From: an uncultured Nitrososphaeraceae archaeon
Lineage (GTDB): Archaea > Thermoproteota > Nitrososphaeria > Nitrososphaerales > Nitrososphaeraceae
Direction of reading: 5' to 3'
NCBI GenBank assembly: GCA_963825865.1
Contig: CAWGVG010000032.1
Span: forward strand, 1-25,116
DNA length: 25,116 nt
Shown here: positions 3,026 through 20,481 of the stretch, piece after piece
Layout: every line of letters begins with the position of its first letter
How positions within the stretch are numbered: the stretch's first letter is position 1
Notes under the pieces: model-generated
What the model saw: the letters and a program-made list of their open reading frames with translations, nothing else
Told to the model about the DNA's origin: nothing
Databases searched by the model: none
Made by a program: the position numbers and the translations under genes

Positions 3026-3337
3026 TAATACTAATTCATCAATGTTACACTAATTTAGATGCAGCGAGTAATGTGTGTGCTAGAAGTCTTAATGGCATTC
3101 AACGTATGAGAAATATCTGGTAGTAGACAGAGTCATGCCTCCTATCGCAGGGGAAGAGAAAAGATATGGAGGGTCTCCATCTACCTGAGAAAATTGAGTT
3201 GCGGAGTTAATAAATAAAGGCTATCTGTCGGGACAGGGAGAGAGGAGGACTCGACTTACAAACACTCAACACAGCAAGGAGTGTACAACACCATCATAGA
3301 TAGAGTTAATTGAGATTTGAAATTAATGATTGCAAGT

Positions 3338-3730
3338 ATGCTATTGTCCTTAGACTCACGCGCTAGGCTCAATAACGGTATCGAGATTGCATACCTTGGC
3401 CTTGGAGTCTACCAGTCACCTCCCGGAAAGGTTACCCAACGCGCTGTCAGATATGCGCTGGATATTGGGTACAGGCATATTGACACTGCTCAGCTATATG
3501 GCAATGAAGAGGATGTAGGGTATGCAGTTAGAGAAAGCGGAATCAAAAGGGATGATGTCTTCATTACCACAAAGGTCTGGAACAGCTACCAGGGATATGA
3601 CTCTACCCTACAAGCATGCGAGCAGAGCTTGCGAAGACTTGGGATGACATATGTGGACCTATACCTGATACACTGGCCGGTACAAGGGATGAGTCTGGAC
3701 CCATTCATCCATGCGTTATATGAAGCATAG
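3338..3730 (+). pseudogene. aldo/keto reductase, N-terminal half only
   Basis: LNNG...[56 protein letters not shown] similarity stops at ~3700, where repeat module X begins. Confidence 0.9.
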
Positions 3731-3960
3731 GTCTAGCTATTTGATAACGATTATGTAAAAAAATGGGACCATATAGAGGCCCATCTCTCCCCATTGTCTC
3801 CTTATATTGACTTTCATTTGGTCTTGACCTTCTATTGCTTTTAACTTGCTCTTTGTCATTTGGGCCGAATTCCCTACTATTGTTACTAATCCTTGTGTAG
3901 AAACTTCTTTTGTACATCCGATAGTTCCGTTCTATCACGCTCGCTTGCTAAATCATTAAT
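3701..3960. repeat. repeat module X copy 1 (direct repeat of 14676-15016)
   Basis: CCATTCATCCATGCGTTATAT...GGGACCATATAGAGG and CTTATATTGACTTTCATTTGG...TCATTAAT are shared with copy 2. Confidence 0.95.
3711..3728. repeat. 18-bp palindromic motif copy A (ATGCGTTATATGAAGCAT)
   Basis: Read directly; one of five copies. Confidence 0.9.
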
Positions 3961-3978
3961 CGAGTACCTTCAGTAAGG

Positions 3979-4207
3979 GCGTTAAGTCATAACAGGAACA
4001 CAATATATTTGAATACTTTTCACAAGCTATCTGATGCGTTATATGGAGCATATGCTCTTTTCTACTTTAGTTTCCTGCTGTGTCTCAACCTCAGATTCCA
4101 ATCCTGCGATTTGCAGCAGGTGATGGTGGAAACAATTTGCAAGTGTTGGAGATGAAAGGAATATAGTCTGCTAGATTTTCAATAGCTGGCTGATGCTTGT
4201 CTATTTC
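3979..4207. repeat. repeat module Y copy 1 (direct repeat of 11982-12211), containing motif copy B at 4034-4051
   Basis: GCGTTAAGTCATAACAG...CTGATGCGTTATATGGAGCATATGCTC...GCTGGCTGATGCTTGTCT is nearly identical to copy 2. Confidence 0.95.
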
Positions 4208-4299
4208 ACAGACAGGAATTTATGAGCGGATATGATGTAGGGTTTAGTGCATGTGGTCATGAATCTTCTCCTGTCGCTTCAAATGTTGACCGTGGTAGA

Positions 4300-4556
4300 T
4301 AGTCCCAAGCACCTAACCTAATTCCTGAAAAAGCCATTGGATAGACTATAGATTTTATTCTCCTGTCAGGATATTCCACTAGCCTTTGTATTTCTTCTAT
4401 AGTTGGTGCTCTATCATTTGCTGCTTGCCTTCCTTTGGGTAGACCACGTGTTATCATTTTCCAATTAATAAGCTGAACGCAACTGTTCATTTCGAAAAAT
4501 AGCTTTGTAGATTTGTAATAATTTTTGATAGTTGACTCTGTGATTTCACCAAAGTC
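4300..4556 (-). pseudogene. internal fragment of a tyrosine recombinase/integrase
   Basis: GEITESTIKNYYKSTKLFFEMN...INWKMITRGLPKGRQAANDRAPTIEEIQRLVEYPDRRIKSIVYPMAFSGIRLGAWDYL. Includes the box I SGxR catalytic Arg; both ends are missing. Confidence 0.85.
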
Positions 4557-4593
4557 CATAGAAGATGTTGTAAGTTTAGTAGTAGATGGTGAG

Positions 4594-4776
4594 ATGATGC
4601 AGAATAAGTAATCACGATAATCATATTGCGCATGACTATCTAAGAGTTGTATCAACTTGGAGTGCACCTATTGTAAAAGTAGAACACAATTTGCATGCAT
4701 CAAATGTGGATATTGCTACGGAGGGAAGAAAGAGGAATTGGAAAGTTCGATCAGAGTCCATAGCAACTACTCCTAA
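4594..4776 (+). pseudogene. small Cys/His zinc-finger protein remnant, not in the ORF track
   Basis: With one frameshift it reads HDNHIAHDYLRVVST/LECTYCKSRTQFACIKCGYCY... (CxxC...CxxCxxC). Confidence 0.55.
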
Positions 4777-4937
4777 CTCTGCATTTTTAGAGAAACATTC
4801 AATTCTATATTCAGCAATAAAATCTGAATATAGAATTCGTAAATGAGAAAACTACGGTGAAAGCTAAAATAATATCCATGTTCTTCTCCGTCTTGAGTCT
4901 GTATCCATACCATTGAAGCAGACTTTTGATGCCTGCA

Positions 4938-5183
4938 GGTTTGATTCTTTTTGGGTGATGGATTATTTCCATCAAATTCCAATAATAGGAAAACCAGAAG
5001 AACATATACTAGAAGGCTGGACAGTAATATCTATACTTGTAGGCATAACAACAAAAATAAAGCCGGGAACACTTGTAACCGGTGTAATATACGAATATCA
5101 ATCAGTCTTGGCGAAAGTAGCTGCCTACGCTCGATGTACTAAGTAAGGGAAGATTATTCATTGGAATAGGAGCTGCCTGGAAC
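4938..5183 (+). pseudogene. fragment of an LLM-class (luciferase-like, probably F420-dependent) oxidoreductase
   Basis: FDSFWVMDYFHQIP...LEGWTVIS...TTKIKPGTLVTG...SVLAKVAA, then after a frameshift TLDVLSKGRLFIGIGAAWN. Confidence 0.85.
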
Positions 5184-5334: not shown

Positions 5335-5694
5335 TCAGTATGGCATAAAGATTGTCTTGTGCGTGGCTTCTGGATGCATAGGGCATTGTGTTACGGCATT
5401 TACTCTATTTTCATACCGTCGGCCACATACTGTACATTCATAGCAGAAATCAAATTCGATTGCGCCTATTGCAGGAAAATCATTGCTTGTATACTTAGTT
5501 TTAAGCGCAAACGCATAGGTTTGAATATGGCAATTAAAACATTCTGCTATCTCTCTAGGCGGTACTCTTGCTTCTACCTCTGATTCGTTCATAATGCCCC
5601 TATGTATTACAAAGGTAGATTTACCGCACCCCGGACAAGCTAAAGTTGGACCAAACATAGGATTAACCCAATCTACTTTAAATTCTGTATCCAT
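5335..5694 (-). CDS. Cys-rich putative zinc-binding protein
   Basis: Intact 119-aa ATG ORF with CPGC, CFNC, CTVC and CPMH pairs. Confidence 0.7.
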   Translation of the reverse strand: MDTEFKVDWVNPMFGPTLACPGCGKSTFVIHRGIMNESEVEARVPPREIAECFNCHIQTYAFALKTKYTSNDFPAIGAIEFDFCYECTVCGRRYENRVNAVTQCPMHPEATHKTIFMPY

Positions 5695-6013
5695 TTTGTA
5701 TTCTATTTATAATAGCAAGACGGTAGTATAAATATAGTAAGGTTTGCATAGTACTACCTGTATGTATACTAGTAATAGTCTTACAGATATTAGAAAGAGG
5801 ACTAACCTTATACGATAGAGCAATTACTAAAAATTCTATCAGAAAGGGCTAACTCGCTGAGGCTGTTGTAGTTCCAGAATACCATATCAAGTGATATTCG
5901 AAATTTTGTAAAATCCACTTCAGCAATTCGCTGGCCTTTATAGCAACAGTAGCAAAAAACCACTAACCAACGAAAAGTAAGTAATAGCGTTAGCAACAAA
6001 ATTGTATAAACTA

Positions 6014-6582
6014 CTAACAAAAAAGAATGTCGCAGTTAGCAGGATATAACTCTGTCGGAGTGTGAATCTCACGCCATTCTCTTATCTTTTTTATCGCATA
6101 TGCATCTGCATCTGTATCGCTGGATCCTTTAGGCTTTGCACCCCACGCCCTGCCACGTTTATTATAGATGTTATTTGCTTGCCACATATGTCTATACTCG
6201 TGTGCTAAAACAAGGATTAATGCCTCTTCCCTAGATAGAATTAGAGCAGGAAGATAATAGTCACCGCTATTCTCTTTGTGTCCTCCCTCTTCACATACAG
6301 GGAATTCATTCTCATTTCTTGAGATATTTACCTCGATGCAAGTATGCTACATTTTTTCAATTACTAGGTCTAACGTAACAACAAGCTCGTCCTCTTCAGG
6401 TTTCATCTGGAAAACTCGTTGTTCTTGCATTTGGTATACTGCAGTTCCACGAAAGAAACCACTATAACCATAGTTACAATTAAGTACTGTTATATTGTTA
6501 AGCTTTGAGACTCCACTATATTTTGGCTTTACAAATCTTATCATTTCTCTAATTTTCTCGGTGTGTAGTTTTCAAGTCTCAT
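6014..6582 (-). pseudogene. HExxH zincin-type metallopeptidase (internal TAG at 6347-6349, frameshift near the start)
   Basis: Reading through the TAG of ORF 6347..6544 gives ...LSREEALILVLAHEYRHMWQ...SDTDADAYAIKKIREWR to a TAG at 6014. The ATG (6580-6582) overlaps the RadA-like stop as ATGA. Confidence 0.7.
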
Positions 6583-7409
6583 TTTTCGTAATCTTCAAAT
6601 CCCCTTTCAACTATCCCTAAAGGATGCCATCCGAAACGTCTAAGTGGACTTTTAACTAATCGCGCATCGACACTATTAGTAATAGCGCTTCTATGTACTA
6701 AATTGATGATATACGTACTAGTATAAGAAACAACTTTGCCGCCAAATGGTCTTGGATCCTTGAATTCGGATTTGGCATCGGGGGTAGACGTACTTTGATT
6801 TGTTATCACTACTGCAATGTTAGATGTTCGTGCCAAGTTACGCAACTTGTGCATGTATATATTTAGTTTCTCTGCTCTTTTTGAAAGATTAGAACGTCCA
6901 GGATATTCGGCCCTATAATGGAACATCATTGAATCTACAATTAACAATTTTATTTTTGAATTAGATTTGTTGGCAATAGAACAGGCTTCCTCAATACATA
7001 ATTCTTGTTGCTTGCTATTTTTTGGGTGTTCAACATAGATGTTCTGAAGTATATTTACCGAGTCTAACTTCCTTGCTTTGGCAATAGATTGGATTTTTTC
7101 TTCGCGAAAGGTCCCTTCAGTATCAATGTAGATAACTTGGTATGCAGAAGATAAAATAACACACAAGAAATGACAAAGATGCGTTTTGCCTGCAGTAGGT
7201 GCTCCATAGAATTGAGTTATTTCTCCCAGCTCTAATCCTCCACTCAAAAGGTCATCTAAATGTTGAGAGCCAGTAGAAAGCCGCTGTTTTCTTCTTTGTT
7301 GCTGGCTGTATAATTGATCAGCTGCTGATGTGAAGAAACTATCGTTAGTAGAAGAGACTTTATGCTGTTCATCTATTTTTCCTGAGTTCAAATCAGATCT
7401 GCTGCTCAA
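6579..7409 (-). CDS. RadA/Rad51 paralog lacking the N-terminal HhH domain
   Basis: RLSTGSQHLDDLLSGG, Walker A GAPTAGKT, YIDTEGTFR, Walker B LLIVDS, YRAEYPGR, AVVITNQ, PFGG. Confidence 0.9.
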   Translation of the reverse strand: MSSRSDLNSGKIDEQHKVSSTNDSFFTSAADQLYSQQQRRKQRLSTGSQHLDDLLSGGLELGEITQFYGAPTAGKTHLCHFLCVILSSAYQVIYIDTEGTFREEKIQSIAKARKLDSVNILQNIYVEHPKNSKQQELCIEEACSIANKSNSKIKLLIVDSMMFHYRAEYPGRSNLSKRAEKLNIYMHKLRNLARTSNIAVVITNQSTSTPDAKSEFKDPRPFGGKVVSYTSTYIINLVHRSAITNSVDARLVKSPLRRFGWHPLGIVERGFEDYEK

Positions 7410-7411
7410 GA

Positions 7412-8368
7412 TTACCCGGCTTCCTCCTCCACTACACTACTATTTGCATTCAATTTTTCTTCTAAAGCATCAGCAAGTGATTTCTTTGGATATTCCTGCT
7501 TTTCTATTCTAATTCTACTTTTACCATCTTTCCAATCTTTAGCATATGCGGTGATTAATGCATGCTCCCAACTTCCCAACTTGTATAAATTTTTTCCCCT
7601 TCATAAGTGATTAAAGCGTCAGCACCGAAATGCCACATTGTCACAATCCAATCCAGGTAATTGGGAATGATTACTACATTTGCCTGATTAATGATGTTGC
7701 CAATCTTCTATTATTCTAGATAACTTCTCTTCTACTCTTACGAGCGCGTTTGAAATCCGAATAACACCGTTGATATCTACTATTACAGGCTCATAAGAGC
7801 AGCCAATAATAACACTTACTGTGTCAGTTTTATGTACGGTTACATCTATGTTAAGTTCGCTGATGGCTATAGTTCCTAAAAATATGTCTTTGCTTAGAGA
7901 GTTGACATTATATTTGGAATTAGAAGATATGATGGACCATATCCCTTTTGCCTCAAATCTTAAACGGATATCATGTAATGCTCTTTGCCCAAGAGGAAGA
8001 TTCTGAATAATCCTATAGACTGGATCATTTGAGAGATGTCGATATCTCTGTTGGTAATGAAGAGGAGATATGAGGACCCCTGTATGGTATCCTGTCATTG
8101 GTTCTTCTGTAGACTCTTGTTCTTTGAGAGTATAGAATGCCTGAGGGGAATAACAAACAAGTTGTATTTTTCCAGCCTTAAGCATGTCTGAAATCTTATT
8201 ACGAAAAGTACCATATGCAATTGAGTAGCTTTGTCCGTCTAGCTCGAACTTAGGAACAAAGTCACAATACGAGAATGATCTATTTTCCTTTTGCAATGTC
8301 TGAGTTATTCGTTTCCACAATGCAGAATCAGAATCACTCATTATTTTTGTAGCACCTTGTTTTTGCAT
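7412..8368 (-). pseudogene. mobile-element protein with an N-terminal wHTH-like region; putative Rep_trans-like rolling-circle initiator (two frameshifts)
   Basis: ORF 7688..8368 continues after frameshifts as IPNYLDWIVTMWHFGADAL...LITAYAKDWKDGKSRIRIEKQEYPKKSLADALEEKLN to a TAA at 7412. The Rep call is inferred from the HFGxD / YxK / RxE motif order. Confidence 0.55.
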
Positions 8369-8381
8369 TACGTTTCTGAAA

Positions 8382-8483
8382 TCAGAGAAGTATGATGACG
8401 ATGATGATACTTGGCCTTTGGTTACTTATTTGCCTCAGTAACTTCCTTGTTCTTCGTTCTACAAGGATTGTTGACTTTGCCAT
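8382..8483 (-). pseudogene. ribbon-helix-helix/CopG-like remnant
   Basis: MAKSTILVERRTRKLLRQI.. fits the TIxVxxxTRxxLxx start of small archaeal RHH-like proteins; the C-terminal part looks lost. Confidence 0.45.
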
Positions 8484-8517
8484 ATGCAATATTGTGCATT
8501 CCCTATAGTAATAGATA

Positions 8518-8552
8518 TCAAGTATACTATACTATACAAGCACTATACTTGA
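8518..8552. promoter_or_regulatory. inverted repeat TCAAGTATA-N17-TATACTTGA in the divergent promoter region; candidate operator
   Basis: Perfect 9-bp arms plus several CTATA direct repeats. Confidence 0.5.
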
Positions 8553-8557
8553 AGAAA

Positions 8558-9506
8558 ATGGTAATTGATGCTGACGAATTGAAAACTATAGGTAAACGTC
8601 TTATTAATTTAGCCGGAAACGAAGTGCATGTTGAAAAAGCAATAAAGAATGACAGGACTATTTCCAGAGAATATCAGTTTTCACTCAAAGAGAAATTAGT
8701 CTTTGAATATGTAAAGGATCATCCTGGTACTACTCAAGAGAATGTAGTAGAGAATGTAAAGCAATATTCACGTGTAACTATACTGAAAACAATAGCTGAT
8801 CTAGAAAACGAAGGATTGATAGAGATCAGTAAAGACGAACACAAGCCTAAAAAGTTACCATTTATACGTTAACAGGAAAAATGTACTGGTTTCGTTAATT
8901 GAAGATCTTGATCATTTCAAAGAATCATTTTTCAATCTTATAGATGAAACAAAAGGAACTCTAAAAACTTTAAACGATAACATTAGTGTTTCAAAAAGAA
9001 TACAGGAGTACAATTTAATAGATGCTCTTCTTATGCCATATAAATGTCTGATTAATACTTGCATTATGTTCGACTTAGTCTTACGACCTAAAGAACCACT
9101 TGATATAAACATTCTTTATAAAAAGTTCGCAATAATTCTTACGGAGATACCAGAAATTCAAATTAAACTGTATGAATCAATATCTACGCCTTCAAGATTC
9201 TATCGTGAGGATGAAATTTACGCTAAAATATTTGAAAGTGGTCTACAGTCGTTAACCCAGGATAATATGTATAATATGCTTGACACTTTTGAAAAACATA
9301 ACTTAAGCAAAAGCGCCGAACAAGTATTAGATATCGTTTGGAAGATGAGTATGCCTCTCCTTCACATTGTTATCAATAGTTGTTATTCAACTTTTATACC
9401 ATCTGAGCCAGAAAGGGTAGGGGATTGGAGAAAGCTAGTGTGTCGTCCTATCTACTGGTATACACCTAAGACGACTCAAAGTTCATATGTCAAAAATTAT
9501 GAATGA
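8558..9506 (+). CDS. winged-helix DNA-binding protein with a helical C-terminal domain (one frameshift at ~8850 joins two ORFs)
   Basis: EKLVFEYVKDHPGTTQENVVENVKQYSRVTILKTIADLENEGLI is wHTH-like. The shifted frame KSYHLYVNRKNVLVSLIEDLDHFKESF... is open into ORF 9033..9506. Confidence 0.7.
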
Positions 9507-9527
9507 TTTTTTTCATCTAGTATTAAA

Positions 9528-10874
9528 TCATTCTACTGTTTTCTTTGTTAATGCTTCTGGCTTAACGTGAGCTAACAGAGGATTTTGCTGTATCATCGAC
9601 ATAATCTGTTCGTACTTTTGCTCAATATCCAGAATCTTCTTATTCTCTGCTTCTTTTATTTCATCAAAAGCTGAGGTACCAAGGGATAACTACACTTGGA
9701 ACAGTATTTATTGTCAAATCCATTTACCAATGTACAACGAGGACAGGCCAAGACTGATGGCTTTTTTTGCATTTCTGTATCAGAAATAACACCATTGTGA
9801 ATAAGGATCTGTCTTTTTAAATCATTTCCCATTCTTCTTTTTATATATCTTGAAGCCTGTCTTGAATTCATTGACCAGCGTACCTTCTTCTTAAGAGCAT
9901 AATCAGGCAGGTAATCAGAATCAGAGGTTATCGCAGAATGTCTTATACAATAAGGATTCCATTTTTTAGTTTGGATATGGTATTGAAGTTTTTCTTTTTC
10001 ACCTTTATCAGTAATTGATTTTTCTCCAATTAAACGGATTATTCTTGTTCTTAGATATTTCATCATTGTCCACATCGCCTCTGGCTTTATTGGACCACCA
10101 GTATAACTATTGCAGATTAGCCTTGTATTGGACTCATTTCTAAAAGGATGCTCATTAAGCCAATCACGTACGAATGGAAATGAACATGTCAACAATATAG
10201 GCCCAGTTCCAGTTTTTGCTTCATGAGGAATTTCTCCCTCGCCATAACGCTCTTTCAATCTTATGTGTTTAATTTTTAATAAAGTGACCTCATGATTTCT
10301 TGCATCAAGATCCCAAAATAATGTCAAAGCAGCTTTATTACGCTTCGATAGCTCGTATTTTAAAATACTTAAAAGTTCATCGCGTTCCCACAATTCTGTT
10401 TCTAAATAAGGGCTTGTTCGTTTTGTCTTCTTTTTTCTGATTTGAATAAACGAAGGTGTTTGCCAATCATAGAAAGATGAAGGATAATAATAATGAGTAT
10501 TGTTAATGTCAGTATTAGAACTTCCAGAATTTTTCTTATGATATGCATTATACAACCATCTAAAAAAATATTTTATATGGCTTAAGTAGTGATTCCAAGT
10601 AGTAATCCATCTTGTATCAGGATCTTCTTCGATGGTTTTAATTTTCGTGTCTAGAAATTTGATAATTTGCTCGTCCTTTTTGAATATCAAAAAAAGTAAT
10701 ATTAGAATTAATATAATTTGCAAAGTTCATGATAGCTTTAAGATTATTATTTATGTGTTTTTCAGAGGCACCAGTATTTTTCAAATATTCATAGAAGTCT
10801 TGGATTAGAGCTACATTAGTAGAATTACCTATCAAAGAGATTTTGTTAACCGTTGTAGACAACTTGACTGGCAT
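9528..10874 (-). CDS. tyrosine recombinase/integrase with an N-terminal core-binding domain and a C-terminal zinc ribbon (frameshifts at ~10680 and ~9675)
   Basis: DLDARNHEV (R), AKTG (K), PYCIRHS, VRWS, SRYI (Y), CPRC..CSKC. The shifted tail SAFDEIKEAENKK...IQQNPLLAHVKPEAL ends in TGA at 9528. Confidence 0.9.
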
Positions 10875-10947
10875 CTATTAATTAAATCCTCCTCCTTTAT
10901 TCTTGGTTTGTAATTTCTTCAACTAGTATATGAACCCGTTATGTAAG

Positions 10948-10990
10948 TGGACTGGGTGGGATTTGAACCCACGATCTTGCACTTGCGAAG
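10948..10990 (-). tRNA. 3' half of tRNA-Ala(CGC); att-like remnant, not a full tRNA
   Basis: Minus strand: C TTCGCAA GTGCA AGATC GTGGG TTCAAAT CCCAC CCAGTCC A. This gives an anticodon loop with CGC, a T-arm, and an acceptor 3' strand with U70 and discriminator A. The 5' half is absent. Confidence 0.85.
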
Positions 10991-11068
10991 AAGTGGAAGC
11001 AACACTTCATTTTCTTGGTTAAAAATAGCCGAACGACAGCAAAATGAAAAACTAAGGTTTATGCGAGA

Positions 11069-11520
11069 TTATCTGTTTAGCCTTTTTCGAAATTTATCTT
11101 TCTCTTGCTTTGATGCAGCATTAACAAATCTCATTCTGGGTACTTTAGGACTGAAACCCCATCTATGTAATAGTCGGTAGATGTGAACTTCATGATATTT
11201 GACTCCTGTTCTTTCATATATCAAATTCATCACTTCTTTAGCCATCCATCCTGACTGATTTTCTGATAGCCTCTTCTTATCCTAGTAGATGTTTCTTTTG
11301 ATACTTCTGGAGGTCTACCGGTTCTAACTCTATCTTTCAATCCATTCAAACCTTCCTTATCAAATCTCTTGAGCCATTTGTAAGCCCACCATCTAGATTT
11401 ATGAAATTCCTTTTCAGCTACACTGGATGCTTCTTTCTTATCTCTTCTAACACGTCTTGCTAGTAGAATTCTTTCCCGTACGTTAGCATTCTTTTCTTTT
11501 CTATAGGCTTTGTTCAAAAT
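11069..11520 (-). mobile_element. IS630-family transposase orfA (HTH part) remnant; DDE part missing
   Basis: RERILL...WAYKWLKRFDKEGLNGLKDRVRTGRPP, frameshift, GWMAKEVMNLIYERTGVKYHEVHIYRLLHRWGFSPKVP...FRKR*. Confidence 0.85.
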
Positions 11521-11630
11521 TGCAGTCGAAGTCAAAGCGAATACAGAGTCTACTCGTAAAAGACTCAAGCTAAATTGGTGTTGACCAAGATCCTTAGACA
11601 GTTGTATCAAATTATGTTAAGCAGTCTACA

Positions 11631-11981: not shown

Positions 11982-12211
11982 GCGTTAAGTCATAACAGTA
12001 ACACAATATCTTTGAATACTTTTCACAAGCTATCTGATGCGTTATATGGAGCATATGCTCTTCTCTACTTTAGTTTCCTGCGGTGTCTCAACCTCAGATT
12101 CCGATCCTGCGATTTACAGCAGTTGATGGTGGAAATAATTTGCACAGTGTTGGAGATGAAAGGAATATAGTCTGCTAGATTTTCAATAGCTGGCTGATGC
12201 TTGTCTGTTTC
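11982..12211. repeat. repeat module Y copy 2, containing motif copy C at 12037-12054
   Basis: Aligns by eye to 3979-4207 with scattered substitutions. Confidence 0.95.
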
Positions 12212-12465: not shown

Positions 12466-12604
12466 TCGCAATATTGCTTAAAAGTTATTTTCTATTATTA
12501 TTATTTATTGAACCTATGCACAGACATTCATAATAATTAGGTCATAACAATAGAAGACGTCGATAACAAAATGCAAAATAATAATCGACAAGAAAGAAGA
12601 AGAT

Positions 12605-13050
12605 ATGACGACAGTCAAAAGAGAAGACTATCAATACACTCCCAAAGAAGGTTTTGTCCTCACGCATTTCCTGACCGTAGCATGATGTTAAACGATCGAG
12701 CAGACTTTTATCTTCGCATTCTTGGAGGAAAAGTTATCCGCAGTGGAGAACCCACCATCATCCAGATTGCCAATAGCTGGATAGTTTTGAACGTAGGGGG
12801 AGGACCAACAGACGATAAGCCAACCGTAACTCTTCAGCCACCTCAAAATCCTAAGGAAGTCAGCAACTTCATGAATATTCGTGTCGCGGACATCCAGGGC
12901 CCTTATGAGGATTGGGGAAGGAAAGGAGCCGAATTTCTTACCGAGCCAAAGGATCATGCTTTAGAGATTCGCTGTTACATGCGTGACCCTGATGGCTATA
13001 TTATCGAGGTCGGACAAACAACTGGTGGACTGAAAGATATCAAGGCATAA
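12605..13050 (+). CDS. VOC/glyoxalase family protein (two 1-nt insertions near 12680-12700)
   Basis: MTTVK...PKEGFVLTHFLTVA/DVKRS/ADFYLRILGGK...MNIRVADI...GAEFLTEP...RCYMRDPDGYIIEVGQ. Confidence 0.85.
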
Positions 13051-13865: not shown

Positions 13866-14450
13866 CTAATTACCAGTTGTAAGAACACATCTAAACCTAT
13901 CTTTACCACTCATCATAAGATCATATGCCTCTGCTGCGCGCTCTAATGGAAGGACTTCATTCATAGACCTTACACCAGAGAGAACACTAAATGAGAGTGT
14001 GTCTTGCGAGTCGATTGACGTACCAGCTGGCCAACCTATCAATGATCGACGTCCTAATATCGTTAGATATGGAGACACTTGAATTGGCTGATCAGATGCT
14101 CCAATTATGACAAGCTTTCCATTGACTGCAAGACCTCCAAGGATTTCAGTCATCGCCTTTCCACTTGGGACAGTTGCAAGTATCACTTTAGCTCCTCCCA
14201 GCTTGTTAAGTTCTTCGATTGCGTTTTGTGACCGGTTATCAATGTATTGCCTTGCACCCAGATTCTTCACCAATTCCTCTTCCTTGTCTCTTGCTCGCCC
14301 AATGGCAACAGTATTAAAACCCATCTTGGCAGCAAACTGAATTCCAAGATGACCAAGTCCGCCTATCCCGAGAATTGCAACTACATCGCCTACACGTGCT
14401 CCACTATTCCGAAGAGCATTGTATGTAGTGCACATCAATGGTGCAACTTA
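13866..14450 (-). pseudogene. Zn-dependent alcohol dehydrogenase, C-terminal (Rossmann) half only
   Basis: APLMC-TTYNALRNSG...VAILGIGGLGHLGIQFAAKMG...AAEAYDLMMSGKDRFRCVLT; the catalytic N-domain is absent. Confidence 0.9.
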
Positions 14451-14675: not shown

Positions 14676-15016
14676 CCATTCATCCATGCGTTATATAGAG
14701 CATAGGTCTATCTATTTGCTAACGATTATGTAAAAAATGGGACCATATAGAGGGTATTATCAAAATTAGCTGTCGTACTTCCAGAACATCTGTACCAAGC
14801 AATAATCAAAAGTTTTGTAAAATTCACTTCAGCAATTCGGCAACCATTCTATTGTCTTATATTGACTTTCATTTGGCCTTGACCTTCAATTGCTTTTGAC
14901 TTGCTCTTTGTCATTTGGACCTGAATTCTCTACTATTGTTACTAATCCTTGTATAGAGACTTCTTTTGTACATCCGATAGTTCCGTTCTATCACTCACGC
15001 TTGCTATATCATTAAT
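14676..15016. repeat. repeat module X copy 2 (motif copy D at 14686-14703; extra ~90 bp internal segment)
   Basis: Aligns to 3701-3960 except for 14755-14845, which resembles 5862-5930. Confidence 0.95.
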
Positions 15017-15066
15017 GGAATATTTGGTTAGAAAGCGACTAAGACTAAGATTGAACCAGACTTTGG

Positions 15067-15483: not shown

Positions 15484-16181
15484 ATGAAAAAAAAGAAAAT
15501 CGCTCTTGTGACAGGATCCAATAAAGGCCTTGGATTTGAAACCTGCCTTCGGTTAGGCCAATTAGGTCTTACTGTAATATTGAGTGCTCGAGATTTTATC
15601 AAAGGCCAAGTGGGCTGCAAAACAATTAGCTGATAGAGGATTGGACGTATTATTTTACCAGTCTGATGTATCAAGTCAAAGTAATATTAGTAGGATAGCA
15701 CTTCAAATAGAGCAACAATTTGGACGGCTAGATATACTTGTCAATAATGGAGCAATTCTCTATGACACCTGGCAAAAGGCTGTCGATGCAGATTTAGAGG
15801 TTGTCAATCAGGCCTTAATAACTAACCTGTTTGGACCTTGGAGGCTATCTCAAGTATGCATACCTATGATGAAGAGAAATAAGTACGGTCGCATTGTAAA
15901 TGTGTCCAGTGACAGGCTCTCTACATTACATGGGTGCTGGAACACCGCCAGCATATAGCGTCTCCAAAGCAGCTCTTAATGCATTAACTCGAATTCTATG
16001 AAGTAGAGCTTCTGGTACTGGTATTTTGGTTAATTCAGTTGATCCAGGATGGGTAGCCACAGATATGGGCAGAGGAGGACGTCCAGTAGAAGAAGGAGCA
16101 AAAGGAATAATATGGGCCGCAACATTGCCAGATAATGGTCCAACTGGAGGATTTTTCTTTGATGGCAAGCCAGCTCCATAG
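15484..16181 (+). pseudogene. short-chain dehydrogenase/reductase (carbonyl-reductase-like), frameshifted
   Basis: ALVTGSNKGLG, LDILVNNG, GRIVNVSS, AYSVSK (YxxSK), [21 protein letters not shown], spread across frameshifted segments. Confidence 0.9.
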
Positions 16182-16549: not shown

Positions 16550-17130
16550 TCCTTCAAAATCTCATGAGGTCTGCAACTCGTGTCCCTTGAAATAGCATGA
16601 TAGCACTTGATACGCTTGCTAGGACAGTACTTGTAGAATAAAAGGTCGTCTTCAGTAGTCCAGAGATCAGTAGGCTTGTATATTGACTTTTCTTTTCTTT
16701 TTAGCTGAGGTATATTATCAACAATACTTGGCTTTGGACGTTTCTTTTGCTCAATATCTGGATAATACAGCCATCTAAAGAATTGTATTAATAATACTGT
16801 ATAGAGATTATAAGTTCCAATCCATTTGTGCAATGGATCTGATGCTTCAGATTTTCTGAAACTATCTAGATATAATAATAAATCCTCTCTTGAAATCTGG
16901 TTGAAAGGTTTGTTATTATTATGAAATTTGGATAGATCAGATAGTAAAAAGACATTTAACTTCCTATAATTATCAGAAAGGTTAATCTCTGTTCTCATTG
17001 CTTGAATGTAATTAACTATAGTGATAGCATTTTCTGGCTGAAGAGTCCTTAAACGATTAACATATTGCGGCTTCTAGTCCTTCTGTAACAATATCGATTT
17101 TTCTATCATATAAGGCGTCTTTGGTAGTAT
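16550..17130 (-). pseudogene. N-terminal half of another tyrosine integrase, truncated just after the catalytic Arg
   Basis: DPLHKWIGTYN...FFRWLY...KRKEKSIYKPTDLWT...RDTSCRPHEILK; paralogous to 9528..10874 (DPDTRWITTWN, FFRWLY, ARNHEV). Confidence 0.85.
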
Positions 17131-17352: not shown

Positions 17353-17652
17353 TCAAGAACCAACCCTTTTCATCTTTGAACCACATTTAGGACATGCTGC
17401 TTGATTGTGTTTTGTACCACAACCCATGCAGTAATAGTTCAATGCACTATTGCCAAACATTGTTGTTGTCCCAGACATACCCATCCTTCTCAATGCTCTC
17501 TTTCTCATGTAAAAACTCAGCAATATGAAAACTGCTATTATTATTGGTAGAGAGTAAGGAAAAGGAACAAATATTGAAATAGCAAGACTGATACCAAGTG
17601 AAATACCAATCCACATTAGCTGCTGTAAAAAAAACTCCTTGTTATTACTCAA
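17353..17652 (-). CDS. small membrane protein with a C-terminal zinc ribbon
   Basis: Two TM helices followed by CMGC...CPKCGS. Confidence 0.75.
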   Translation of the reverse strand: MSNNKEFFLQQLMWIGISLGISLAISIFVPFPYSLPIIIAVFILLSFYMRKRALRRMGMSGTTTMFGNSALNYYCMGCGTKHNQAACPKCGSKMKRVGS

Positions 17653-19182: not shown

Positions 19183-20481
19183 TTGCTATTAGCAAAGATG
19201 AAGACAAACGCTGACCAAAATAGATGGGATTCAGTAAAGAGGTACAAACTGACCAAAATGTTGAATGAACTTTCAAACTTTTCTGGTCATGGTACAGAAT
19301 TGGTAACGGTATATATTCCGCCACGACGTCAAATTTTTGACGTTATATCTCAATTGCGTAACGAAGCTGGAACTGCCTCGAACATTAAGTCCGACTTGAC
19401 TCGAACCCACGTTCAAGATGCATTAAGCAGAACAATCGAACATATCAAACTTTTCAAGGACACGCCTGAAAATGGACTTGTTGTTTTCTGTGGAGCTATT
19501 CCGACAGGCAAAGGTTTTGGCACTGAAAAGATTGAACTTTACTCTGTTATGCCACCAAAGCCAATTCAGATCAATCTCTATCGATGCGACGATCATTTCT
19601 GGACAGACCATTTAAAGGACATGATGAAAGACGACAAGGTATTAGGAATTTTGGCCATCGATAATCAAGAGGCAGGTCTTGGAATTTTAACTGGTGATAG
19701 ATGGGAGGTTATAGATACACTGACGTCTGGTGTAGCAGGTAAACACAGACAAGGGGGTCAATCTGCAAAAAGATTTGAAAGGCTTCGTGACAATGAACTA
19801 AATGAATATTATCGTAGAATTGCAGATCATTCACAAAAAGTATTCATTAATCAATTTAATGTCAAGGGCATTATCGTAGGAGGACCTGGTCCTACAAAAG
19901 AAAATTTTCTTAAAGAAGAATATTTAGATTATAGATTGCAAAACAATGTTATCAGTACTTTGGATATATCATATTCAGGTGATGAGGGTATTAGGGAAAT
20001 CATAGACAAAGTTAACGAACAAGGAGTTTTGACCGAATATCGCTTGATGGAAGAAAAAAAAATTATCAAGAAATTCATGAAAGAGGTTCATACAGGAAAG
20101 GGGCTTGGCATATATGGTATTTTTGATGTAGTAAAATCCTTGCAAAATGGGATGGTTGACACGGTTATTGTGACTGACGATATTGCTTATTTCAAAATCG
20201 ATGTAAAATGCAAAAGATGTGGGAACATTCAGGAAAGGTTTACTAACAGAGCTGATTTGATTCCTTTAAAGCAGGAACTTTTATCAAAACCTTGTCCATC
20301 GTGTGGCGCAATTGATTTTGAAATTAATGAAAAAGATATTGTAGATTATTTGGAAGAGATGACTGCGTTAACTGGAGGCAAGATTGAAGTAATATCTGCA
20401 AAGACCGAAGAAGGTGCTCAGTTGGCAAGCATTGGCAAAATTGGAGCAATTCTTCGATTCAGGCCTATTGCAAGCTCTTGA
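19183..20481 (+). CDS. prf1: archaeal peptide chain release factor aRF1 (start may be the ATG at 19198)
   Basis: GTELVTVYIP, ASNIKS, LYRCD, GKHRQGGQSAKRFER, IGAILRF; CKRC/CPSC mini-domain. Confidence 0.98.
   Translation: MLLAKMKTNADQNRWDSVKRYKLTKMLNELSNFSGHGTELVTVYIPPRRQIFDVISQLRNEAGTASNIKSDLTRTHVQDALSRTIEHIKLFKDTPENGLVVFCGAIPTGKGFGTEKIELYSVMPPKPIQINLYRCDDHFWTDHLKDMMKDDKVLGILAIDNQEAGLGILTGDRWEVIDTLTSGVAGKHRQGGQSAKRFERLRDNELNEYYRRIADHSQKVFINQFNVKGIIVGGPGPTKENFLKEEYLDYRLQNNVISTLDISYSGDEGIREIIDKVNEQGVLTEYRLMEEKKIIKKFMKEVHTGKGLGIYGIFDVVKSLQNGMVDTVIVTDDIAYFKIDVKCKRCGNIQERFTNRADLIPLKQELLSKPCPSCGAIDFEINEKDIVDYLEEMTALTGGKIEVISAKTEEGAQLASIGKIGAILRFRPIASS

Follow-up and report, generated by a model that had tools for sequence, protein, structure and literature searches.

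Cryptic integrated elements (CIEs) of thaumarchaea are tyrosine-integrase elements which often reside in tRNA genes, have short att sites and can be arrayed at a single site (Krupovic et al. 2019, PMC6563490). The replication genes named for them in the available text of that report are MCM, PolB, primpol-S3H, Cdc6/Orc1, HUH Rep and other helicases, and the only RadA mentioned there is an inactivated homologue in the PolB-arCOG08101 operon of NitGar-E5 (PMC6563490). The present work examines a stretch of 25,116 nucleotides from an uncultured Nitrososphaeraceae archaeon (contig CAWGVG010000032.1 of GenBank assembly GCA_963825865.1), referred to below as the window. Positions 5335-10991 of the window are a decayed copy of a recurrent, integrase-bearing, plasmid-like family of integrated elements of soil Nitrososphaerales. 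The hallmark gene of this family encodes a protein with a predicted TBP-like fold, termed protein X. In the lineage of the window, X shows translational coupling to a RadA paralogue that has no N-terminal helix-hairpin-helix (HhH) domain, termed sRadA.

Two groups of replication initiators bear on the interpretation of X. The Rep_trans proteins (PF02486), which are rolling-circle initiators and relaxases, have a TBP-like catalytic fold (PMC4797284, PMC13107129) and are described as bacterial in the available part of PMC13107129. In RepD/RepDE of the pT181 family, the accessible portion of PMC4797284 places Y191, K193 and R212/E214 on the TBP-like sheet's inner side. A 2026 study described Rep-Arvir (DUF7845, PF25227), an archaeal family which has a TBP-like fold, is not recognisable as a Rep by sequence and has an N-terminal catalytic domain followed by a central winged helix-turn-helix (wHTH) domain and a role proven for the SNJ2 provirus (PMC13107129, available in part). 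Nitrososphaeria are not mentioned in the available text of PMC13107129, and one supplement does not contain “Nitroso”, “Thermoproteota” or “Thaumarchae”; other tables of that study could list X-like proteins.

The elements described here are like CIEs in having a tyrosine integrase, a tRNA site and, among the ORFs scanned, no capsid or conjugation genes, and the replication genes of CIEs are themselves varied. They differ in that no X-like protein is among the CIE replication genes named in the available text of PMC6563490, and in that here the ATPase motifs of RadA are retained and its gene is coupled to that of X. Neither the X family nor the X-RadA module of these organisms was found described in the searchable literature (including 10.1101/2025.08.23.671958, available in part), which leaves most subscription journals outside its coverage. 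We hold with high confidence that the locus is a decayed copy, that the family has the layout given below, that X and RadA are coupled and that the window copy is disrupted. The explanation as a whole, which adds a mechanism for the intact relatives, is moderately probable. An initial annotation of this DNA is supported at the level of the family and was wrong on the state and compactness of the window copy.

An integrated element family and its decayed copy

Loci encoding X were collected in one scan of species-representative genomes and numbered L001 onward (n = 65). All of them lie in metagenome-assembled genomes (MAGs) of Nitrososphaerales, and the four richest MAGs hold 8, 6, 5 and 5 copies. 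The presence of several copies in single MAGs and in varied contexts indicates that the block does not represent a host locus with fixed synteny. X elements recur with an integrase beside a tRNA gene, which supports the integrative, plasmid-like family that was proposed in the initial annotation. An integrase gene is found on the same strand within 4.5 kb upstream of X in 21 of the 31 loci that have at least 4 kb of upstream sequence, and X is the only gene besides the integrase which is conserved across loci. The usual order is a tRNA gene, the integrase gene, a divergent gene that encodes a regulator of helix-turn-helix (HTH) type with ~300 amino acids (aa), X and a set of variable genes, and gene-order maps often place a further conserved gene (cluster C2) before X. 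A tRNA gene stands directly before the integrase gene, at a distance of 57-89 nt, in L005, L020, L021 and L022.

The variable genes after X include a RadA-like gene, a ParB-N/DNA-methylase fusion, a ~950-aa protein and an open reading frame (ORF) with a SWIM finger, among others. When RadA is missing, X is often followed by the ParB-N/N6-N4 DNA methylase fusion (~410-450 aa) or by the ~950-aa protein. Genes of these two kinds were noted after X in L005, L014, L017 and L023 and also in L020, L023, L048 and others; the ~950-aa protein follows X in 9 loci and had no match in Pfam, PHROG or the PDB. The features of the block in the window are as follows.

10948-10991, minus strand: tRNA-Ala(CGC)-like 3' half, from the anticodon loop to the acceptor end, identified by alignment with complete tRNAs; the 5' half is missing
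10926-10937, minus strand: conserved GGGTTCATATAC box, 10 nt past the tRNA end and ahead of the start of the integrase; single copy in the window
9531-10874, minus strand: tyrosine-recombinase integrase pseudogene with a C-terminal zinc ribbon; ~450 aa in read-through, two frameshifts (near 10680 and 9680)
8411-8872 and 9033-9506, plus strand: divergent HTH regulator gene, split; assigned from weak HTH matches and alignment to the L021/L022 genes
7412-8368, minus strand: protein X pseudogene, with 1-nt deletions near 7701 and 7565
6579-7409, minus strand: sRadA gene, 276 aa, intact (Pfam Rad51, E 5.8e-48)
6014-6582, minus strand: gene for a small HExxH protein (LAHEYRH), ATG at 6582, frameshift near 6560, TAG at 6347-6349
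5862-5930, no strand assigned: 70-nt fragment of a repeat unit; the same unit occurs at 14769-14839 inside repeat C
5335-5694, minus strand: Cys-rich ORF, 119 aa, with several CxxC pairs, taken from the ORF list; membership of the element unproven

The tRNA-Ala half of the initial annotation was confirmed by its alignment, on the minus strand, with the complete tRNAs that precede homologous integrases in L020, L021 and L022. Its anticodon loop reads UUCGCAA, which gives the alanine anticodon CGC, and U70 in the acceptor strand is presumably an Ala identity element. The tRNA before the integrase is tRNA-Met in L020 and L022 and of unassigned type in L021, and it lies on the strand of the integrase. 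ARAGORN reported no tRNA in the window, and Rfam detected the T-arm alone. The tRNA half is 73 nt upstream of the integrase, and upstream of the half itself are truncated fragments of an IS630-like transposase in place of the tRNA 5' half. L031 and L060 also retain just partial tRNA ends beside the integrase. As read from the sequence, the 3' half is an att-type junction which adjoins the integrase. The GGGTTCATATAC box occurs at the same position in L020, L021 and L022 only (3 of 65 loci) and is possibly an arm site of the integrase; there is no second copy of it in the window.

The integrase gene lies on the minus strand, as had been annotated, and its two frameshifts show that it is not intact. 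Its product is spread over three frames and shares 64-66% identity with the L021 and L031 proteins, which are intact at 448 and 465 aa. The matches to family models are weak, with E 5.7e-6 for XerA NF040815 (26.1 bits against a cut-off of 220) and E 7e-4 for a PHROG integrase; the intact homologues match PF00589 at 3.6e-4 to 5.6e-4, under the gathering score. No capsid or conjugation family was matched when 28+13 ORFs of the window and 19 ORFs of the loci were scanned, in agreement with the initial annotation.

The window contains three minus-strand integrase remnants (16552-17067, 9531-10874 and 4296-4607), each of a type found upstream of X in other genomes, and the outer two keep just residues 39-209 of 481 and 69-167 of 411. 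Three remnants on the same strand suggest a tandem array or the repeated use of one site.

The initial annotation had also proposed to locate an intact tRNA-Ala(CGC) and the partner att site, neither of which was found in repeat searches. No second copy of the tRNA end is present in the window at up to 3 mismatches, and a T-loop search of the window gave one weak extra match, at 15532, where 8 of 100 shuffles reached two matches. Around the tRNAs of L005, L020, L021 and L022 no exact repeat of at least 12 nt was found, and a search for 18-mer repeats at up to 3 mismatches, covering the window and these four loci, likewise gave none, which speaks against integration at the tRNA. The lack of a short att partner favors an alternative in which the block came to its place not through the integrase at a tRNA but as part of an 8,003-bp unit, which homologous recombination between 230-bp repeats inserted or rearranged, with the tRNA half as an uninterrupted attP-type site inside the unit. 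Two 230-nt direct repeats (3979-4207 and 11982-12211), which are 95.7% identical and 8,003 nt apart, do flank the entire block, and the tRNA 3' half stands alone, with a truncated IS630-like gene upstream rather than a 5' half. However, these repeats belong to a mosaic family with more copies at 3701-3966, 14676-15022 and 5862-5930, so the bracketing may be incidental. The flanked unit also holds a second integrase fragment (4296-4607), and the partial tRNA ends in L031 and L060 are what decay or tandem arrays would be expected to leave. Recombination between the repeats is regarded as improbable; the unit may instead reflect tandem remnants of elements.

At least 8 independent lesions were counted in the window element. 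Only the RadA-like and Cys-rich ORFs of the block are intact; the integrase, regulator, X and HExxH genes are disrupted, a TGACA repeat that precedes X in relatives is gone and the tRNA 5' half is missing. With these losses the window copy is very probably immobile, and the locus should be entered in annotation as a pseudogenised element, set in a junkyard of integrase remnants. Decay is common in the X family, since an X ORF of at least 280 aa is intact in only 23 of the 65 loci; the other 42 lack one, some being cut by contig ends. The initial annotation described a compact element of ~6 kb. A family of small, integrase-bearing elements was borne out and the compactness was not, since the element of L005 spans more than 13 kb and the window copy is decayed; truncation may account for the size of ~6 kb.

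In principle, sequencing errors could explain the frameshifts, which would count against decay, and one of the integrase frameshifts does fall in a run of seven A (10678-10700 region). It is extremely unlikely, however, that the disruptions as a whole are sequencing or assembly errors in an intact and active element. That frameshift alone lies in a long homopolymer run, and the lesions include a GAG to TAG nonsense change, 1-nt deletions outside long homopolymers and the loss of both the TGACA repeat and the tRNA 5' half. Neighbouring housekeeping genes are intact, for example that for eRF1 (19183-20481, 432 aa), and split X genes are common in the MAG loci, as noted above.

Protein X as a candidate initiator

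In the window, the first part of X is encoded by a 226-aa ORF (7688-8368) and the last part by a 55-aa ORF (7412-7579), and the middle 46 residues lie in the third frame. The breaks were placed against P0002, a 300-aa protein which is 88% identical. The 55-aa ORF had been taken for a separate ribbon-helix-helix-like remnant and is the C-terminus of X itself. The “Rep-like gene” of the initial annotation does represent a gene family; it is not intact, owing to the two 1-nt deletions, and its wHTH/Rep label has no sequence-level support. X has no match in Pfam, NCBIfam or PHROG. Its family comprises at least 298 proteins at E≤0.001, typically of ~300 aa, none of which is named or has a Pfam domain.

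An AlphaFold2 (AF2) model of X has a mean predicted local distance difference test (pLDDT) score of 81.7 and a predicted template modelling score of 0.60. A small alpha/beta domain at the N-terminus comes first in it, then a linker that is disordered and two beta-sheet-plus-helix repeats, and the TBP-like part covers residues ~100-298. When the model was compared to the PDB with Foldseek, every match listed to rank 43 was a TBP, with E from 6.4e-5. The matches in BFVD were TBP-like proteins of large viruses, several proteins of Inoviridae (one of them named “GST REP”) and one archaeal-virus protein. The nearest named Atlas clusters are DUF7845 (0.82) and Rep_trans/Phage_CRI (0.76-0.77).

Conservation was assessed in 117 X sequences, with identity to P0002 down to 32%. 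The invariant residues include Y260 (99%), K262 (99%), R270 (92%), R272 (98%) and E/D274 (99%), as well as H116, H231 and D235 (100%), D26 (98%) and D166 (96%). Rep_trans proteins have three acidic metal ligands on the inner sheet face; the candidate acidic ligands of X, named from sequence positions, are D26, D166, D182 and D235, and conservation over these and the Tyr, Lys, Arg and E/D274 positions is 92-100%. In the model, Y260-x-K262 and R270-x-R272-x-E274 should lie on two strands of one predicted hairpin and face the same side. X resembles Rep_trans proteins in its predicted TBP-like sheet, in the Tyr-x-Lys motif and in an Arg-x-Glu pair predicted on the neighbouring strand, as well as in having a putative DNA-binding module in the same protein and in belonging to putative small mobile replicons. 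In contrast to Rep_trans, X is archaeal, has no sequence match to that family and scores better with TBPs than with any Rep chain listed. X is like RepSNJ2, the Rep-Arvir protein of pleolipovirus SNJ2, in being archaeal, TBP-like in predicted fold and not identifiable as a Rep from its sequence, and in belonging to integrative elements where its gene stands beside that of the integrase and close to a conserved DNA element. The available text of PMC13107129 gives Rep-Arvir no RadA partner.

The conserved DNA element is TGACA[AG]TGACA, which 31 of 37 loci have on the X strand, 19-76 nt ahead of the estimated start of X; in shuffled upstream sequences the mean was 0.015 loci. A third ATGACA often precedes the repeat, and the region has the form aATGACAc-N4-5-ATGACA(R)TGACAGGT. 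This repeat could be an iteron or origin. In the window, homology to relatives stops exactly at the expected position of the repeat, and the repeat itself is absent.

An inverted copy of the repeat, TGTCA[CT]TGTCA, occurs inside the X coding region of L010, L011, L012, L024, L025, L027, L028, L038, L043, L051 and L057, in a variable segment before the second sheet. It encodes V-T/I-V-I and may be a coding coincidence or an internal cis site.

Several results weigh against a replication function of this kind. First, the structural scores are low (TM 0.25-0.51, rmsd 7-12 Å), the best matches are TBPs and not RepD, and the Atlas scores fall under the threshold of 0.9 that was used for a lead. Secondly, none of 25 X proteins matched PF02486 (Rep_trans) or PF25227 (DUF7845) at E≤10, and the best match of an X profile to PDB sequences had E 0.25. 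Third, the TGACA repeat could equally be an operator, and no origin-like hairpin was found, with folding z scores of 0.36 for 5695-6013 and -1.85 for 8342-8560. In addition, the TBP-like part of X is preceded by a small N-terminal alpha/beta domain, unlike the arrangement given for Rep-Arvir in the available part of PMC13107129. Lastly, X and sRadA had no match in phage and plasmid collections, and no free circular or plasmid copy was found in these.

These results bear on an alternative in which X is a TBP-like DNA-binding regulator or partition factor that acts at a TGACA operator. The element would then be an integrative island that does not replicate, with sRadA as cargo for recombination or repair. 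The top fold matches of X are genuine TBPs, X has no sequence similarity to any Rep, the TGACA repeat is at promoter distance from the start codon and a hairpin is lacking, all of which agree with a regulator. However, the invariant cluster of Tyr, Lys, Arg, acidic and His residues on beta strands persists down to 32% identity and is more like an enzyme than like a TBP saddle. Moreover, as the sole conserved gene besides the integrase, X would occupy the position of the replication gene in small integrative plasmids. We regard the regulator alternative as rather unlikely. A Rep function for X is plausible from its predicted fold and conserved residues. For the specific proposal, that X works as a nicking initiator like those of the Rep_trans superfamily while being a member of neither Rep_trans nor Rep-Arvir, we judge the chances to be even.

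L045 and L046 lie on contigs of one MAG (0.47 Mb and 2.2 Mb). Their truncated X fragments are the same and do not differ in match statistics, which points to a duplicated region or an assembly duplicate.

The short RadA and its partners

The RadA-like gene of the initial annotation proved to be an intact 276-aa ORF, which begins 2 nt past the preceding ORF as had been stated. The protein matches positions 70-315 of the 316 positions of the RadA model and is therefore without the N-terminal HhH domain. It has a Walker A motif (GAPTAGKT), a Walker B motif (LLIVDS), an IDTEG segment and, at its start, FTSA, which is of the FxxA type. FxxA is a polymerisation motif and is missing from the linked RadA of L005 and L002. 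The scores of sRadA fall under the cut-offs for RadA (211.7 against 259 for NF003301; 197.5 against 361 for TIGR02236) and for RadB (129.4 against 172.4 for TIGR02237). sRadA is nearer to solved RadA (2bke, 6.5e-43) than to RadB (2cvf, 1.6e-19). Its PHROG matches are “UvsX-like recombinase” (1e-19) and “DNA repair protein” (3.7e-21), and it has no match in the phage collection at 1e-5.

Short RadAs, mostly of 260-295 aa and without PF14520/HhH, are 45-69% identical to sRadA of the window, whose identity to the canonical, HhH-bearing RadAs of these archaea is 40-45%; the canonical forms fall in separate clades. In the L2 region sRadA reads GGKVVSY, compared with GGN/HVVAH in canonical thaumarchaeal RadA. 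sRadA shares with RadA, RadB and UvsX a Rad51/RadA ATPase core with Walker A and B motifs, and it shares with RadB and the core-only recombinases of phages the lack of an N-terminal HhH domain. Sak4 is such a core-only phage recombinase of the RecA family. sRadA differs from RadA and RadB in falling under both sets of cut-offs and in belonging to short-form clades apart from canonical RadA.

The co-occurrence of the Rep-like and RadA-like genes, which the initial annotation had put forward as a check, was found elsewhere in the form of an overlapping or near-overlapping pair. The junctions between X and RadA measure -7 to +15 nt in L001, L002, L005, L016 and L021, and L006 has a partial RadA copy at a contig end. 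In addition, 12 pairs of X and RadA proteins have an equal longest-contig value in their records. In the X tree, the window, L001, L002, L005, L006, L016 and the 12 paired proteins fall in one clade of 28 rows (SH-aLRT branch support 85). The RadA-linked L021 lies just outside this clade, and all 17 loci without RadA are outside it. A single change of state in the X tree accounts for the presence of RadA, which 7 loci have and 17 do not. Since kin share labels, this result indicates a lineage-specific linkage and not independent co-evolution. Pairings in the RadA tree mirror those in the X tree, for example P0312/P0317/P0323 against P0024/P0016/P0032.

Two results limit the role that RadA can have in the family. 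A RadA-like gene is directly downstream of X in 8 of the 56 loci with at least 900 nt of downstream sequence and absent there in the other 48; thus, it is not needed by the X family. The linked RadA of L016 is a different, full-length protein, and that of L021 is without Walker A. Together with the mirrored pairings, these exceptions indicate that the X-RadA link is old, with occasional replacement. A RadA in the replication operon, as initially annotated, therefore holds for one X lineage and not for the family. The intactness of sRadA in the window is not evidence of selection, since at the ~1.6 lesions per kb seen in neighbouring genes an 831-nt ORF would remain intact by chance in about 1 in 4 cases.

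The two ORFs of the divergent regulator have weak matches to Sta1/Lrs14/Csa3 (E ~0.003) and to PHROG regulators (1.4e-4). They align to residues 20-120 and 173-257 of single genes of 305 and 330 aa, which sit between the integrase and X in L022 and L021, respectively. The plus-strand wHTH gene of the initial annotation thus has an HTH signal, though a weak one, and is half of one gene of ~305-330 aa rather than a whole gene.

The HExxH gene does overlap the RadA stop codon (ATGA, with the ATG at 6582), as initially annotated, and it is not intact. Its N-terminus, MRLENYT, is like that of P0388, and its in-frame TAG replaces a Glu codon of the intact, 90%-identical P0385 (GAG to TAG, a G-to-T nonsense change). 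The HExxH motif is kept in the window, P0385, P0386, P0387 and P0389. P0389 is a fusion of the X N-terminus to the HExxH C-terminus, and P0388 is a fusion of the HExxH N-terminus to sequence found at 5880-5950 in the window. By the evidence of these fusions, X and the HExxH gene go together in close relatives, where deletions are present too. The protein has a weak match to DUF6782 in Pfam (E 0.0043, 16.8 bits against a cut-off of 27) and none in NCBIfam or PHROG. The Cys-rich gene was present as annotated, as an intact ORF, and had no match in Pfam, NCBIfam or PHROGs. No homologue of the HExxH or Cys-rich protein was found in the 65 loci, except for a short Zn-motif match in L001 and L002, and on this homology evidence the two genes are not family-wide.

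The order of RadA and HExxH genes, with overlapping stop and start codons, and the adjoining divergent regulator allow for a damage switch, in which an sRadA filament on single-stranded DNA would activate the HExxH peptidase, which would cleave the HTH repressor and turn on X and excision. The RecA-stimulated ImmA/ImmR switch of ICEBs1 is an analogue. The nearest Atlas clusters of the HExxH protein are a phage “metallopeptidase” (0.93) and an ImmA/IrrE type (0.84), and the protein is like ImmA/IrrE and phage metallopeptidases in being a small HExxH protein of a mobile element, encoded beside an HTH regulator. It differs from the ImmA/IrrE type in matching no family model at the cut-off and in the motif being out of register in P0390, its sole distant homologue, which reads HELRYH. 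Further points against the switch are that the protein has 6 database relatives only, that its AF2 model is unusable (pLDDT 39.9) and that most X-RadA loci show no HExxH gene. We consider the switch very unlikely.

We infer instead a mechanism in which X is a nicking initiator and sRadA a handler of single-stranded intermediates. In intact relatives, the integrase would insert the element at a tRNA 3' half and excise it as a circle. After excision, X would bind the TGACA repeats just upstream of its own gene and, with its TBP fold and an architecture like that of Rep_trans and Rep-Arvir, would nick the DNA with Tyr260 to start rolling-circle replication. sRadA, as an ATPase-competent core with a polymerisation motif, would coat the displaced single strand and either protect it or promote annealing or strand invasion for second-strand synthesis or recombinational rescue; this role as a handler of single-stranded DNA is doubtful. 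The HExxH and Cys-rich genes would be local cargo of the sub-lineage of the window. As a tentative proposal, X would form a third branch of TBP-fold initiators, specific to ammonia oxidisers, one lineage of which recruited a truncated, catalytically intact RadA as a partner for single-stranded intermediates.

Ammonia-oxidising archaea drive soil nitrification, and we know of no plasmid or genetic system for them. If X is an initiator, its gene and the TGACA repeat would make up a minimal replicon and a possible vector backbone. A vector-type replicon of this sort was made for haloarchaea in the work on SNJ2 Rep-Arvir (PMC13107129, available in part). If the proposal is true, the TBP-fold Rep superfamily would gain a third major lineage, and a recombinase-assisted mode of rolling-circle replication or integration, not described for any plasmid family, would be added. 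Intact relatives such as L001, L005 and L016, taken with their TGACA repeat, would in that case rank as the first candidates for autonomous replicons in Nitrososphaerales. The family is also a natural case of a mobile element with its own RadA-derived recombinase, and in annotation the short “RadA” genes of soil Nitrososphaeraceae are to be read as element genes and not as the host recombinase.

Sequences around the block

The window is archaeal, with a G+C content of ~35%, and family searches place the block within a region of ~14 kb made up of gene fragments. The truncated host-type genes around the block are the following.

1044-1337: C-terminus of a Na/H exchanger
3317-3730: N-terminus of an aldo/keto reductase
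13866-14438: C-terminus of a zinc-dependent alcohol dehydrogenase
15584-15958: fragment of a short-chain dehydrogenase/reductase

A candidate fragment of an F420-type oxidoreductase at 4913-5146 was dropped since it had no Pfam support, and a 157-aa ORF of the window had no match in Pfam, NCBIfam or PHROGs.

The direct repeats form a mosaic family at 3701-4207, 11982-12211, 14676-15022 and 5862-5930, with 82-98% identity. The first of these is a copy of 14676-15022 joined to a copy of 11982-12211, the further copy spanning 3701-3966. The copy at 14676-15022 has an insert of ~80 nt, the sequence of which recurs just downstream of the HExxH gene, and the 70-nt fragment at 5862-5930 may mark the distal edge of element-derived sequence. 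The repeats have no Pfam match in any frame, no NCBIfam or PHROG match, and none of the 65 loci has a copy. The window contains five copies of an 18-nt near-palindrome, ATGCGTTATATAACGCAT, at up to 3 mismatches (3711, 4034, 12037, 14686 and 15067, plus strand; shuffle mean 0.02). Each long repeat includes two of these copies at a spacing of 323-381 nt, and the palindrome may be a protein-binding site or the ends of a miniature inverted-repeat transposable element (MITE)-like unit.

The IS630-type fragments which adjoin the tRNA half are two overlapping minus-strand ORFs (11069-11610) that encode only the N-terminal HTH domains of the transposase, without the catalytic part, and have relatives in L009 and L049. 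A weak match to the C/D-box small RNA sR35 at 1519-1575 on the plus strand (23.2 bits and E 0.065, where the gathering score is 60) is probably due to chance. Just upstream of the outer integrase remnant, a 99-aa zinc-ribbon/DUF996-like gene lies on the minus strand (17353-17652). A homologue, 57% identical, is upstream of the integrase remnant of L009 (L009 3874-4182), and the gene may be a shared target or an element gene. A glyoxalase-family gene near the block (12571-13050, plus strand) has a 78%-identical homologue in L055 (166-645), which lies 2.7 kb from an X fragment in a relative orientation that differs from that in the window.

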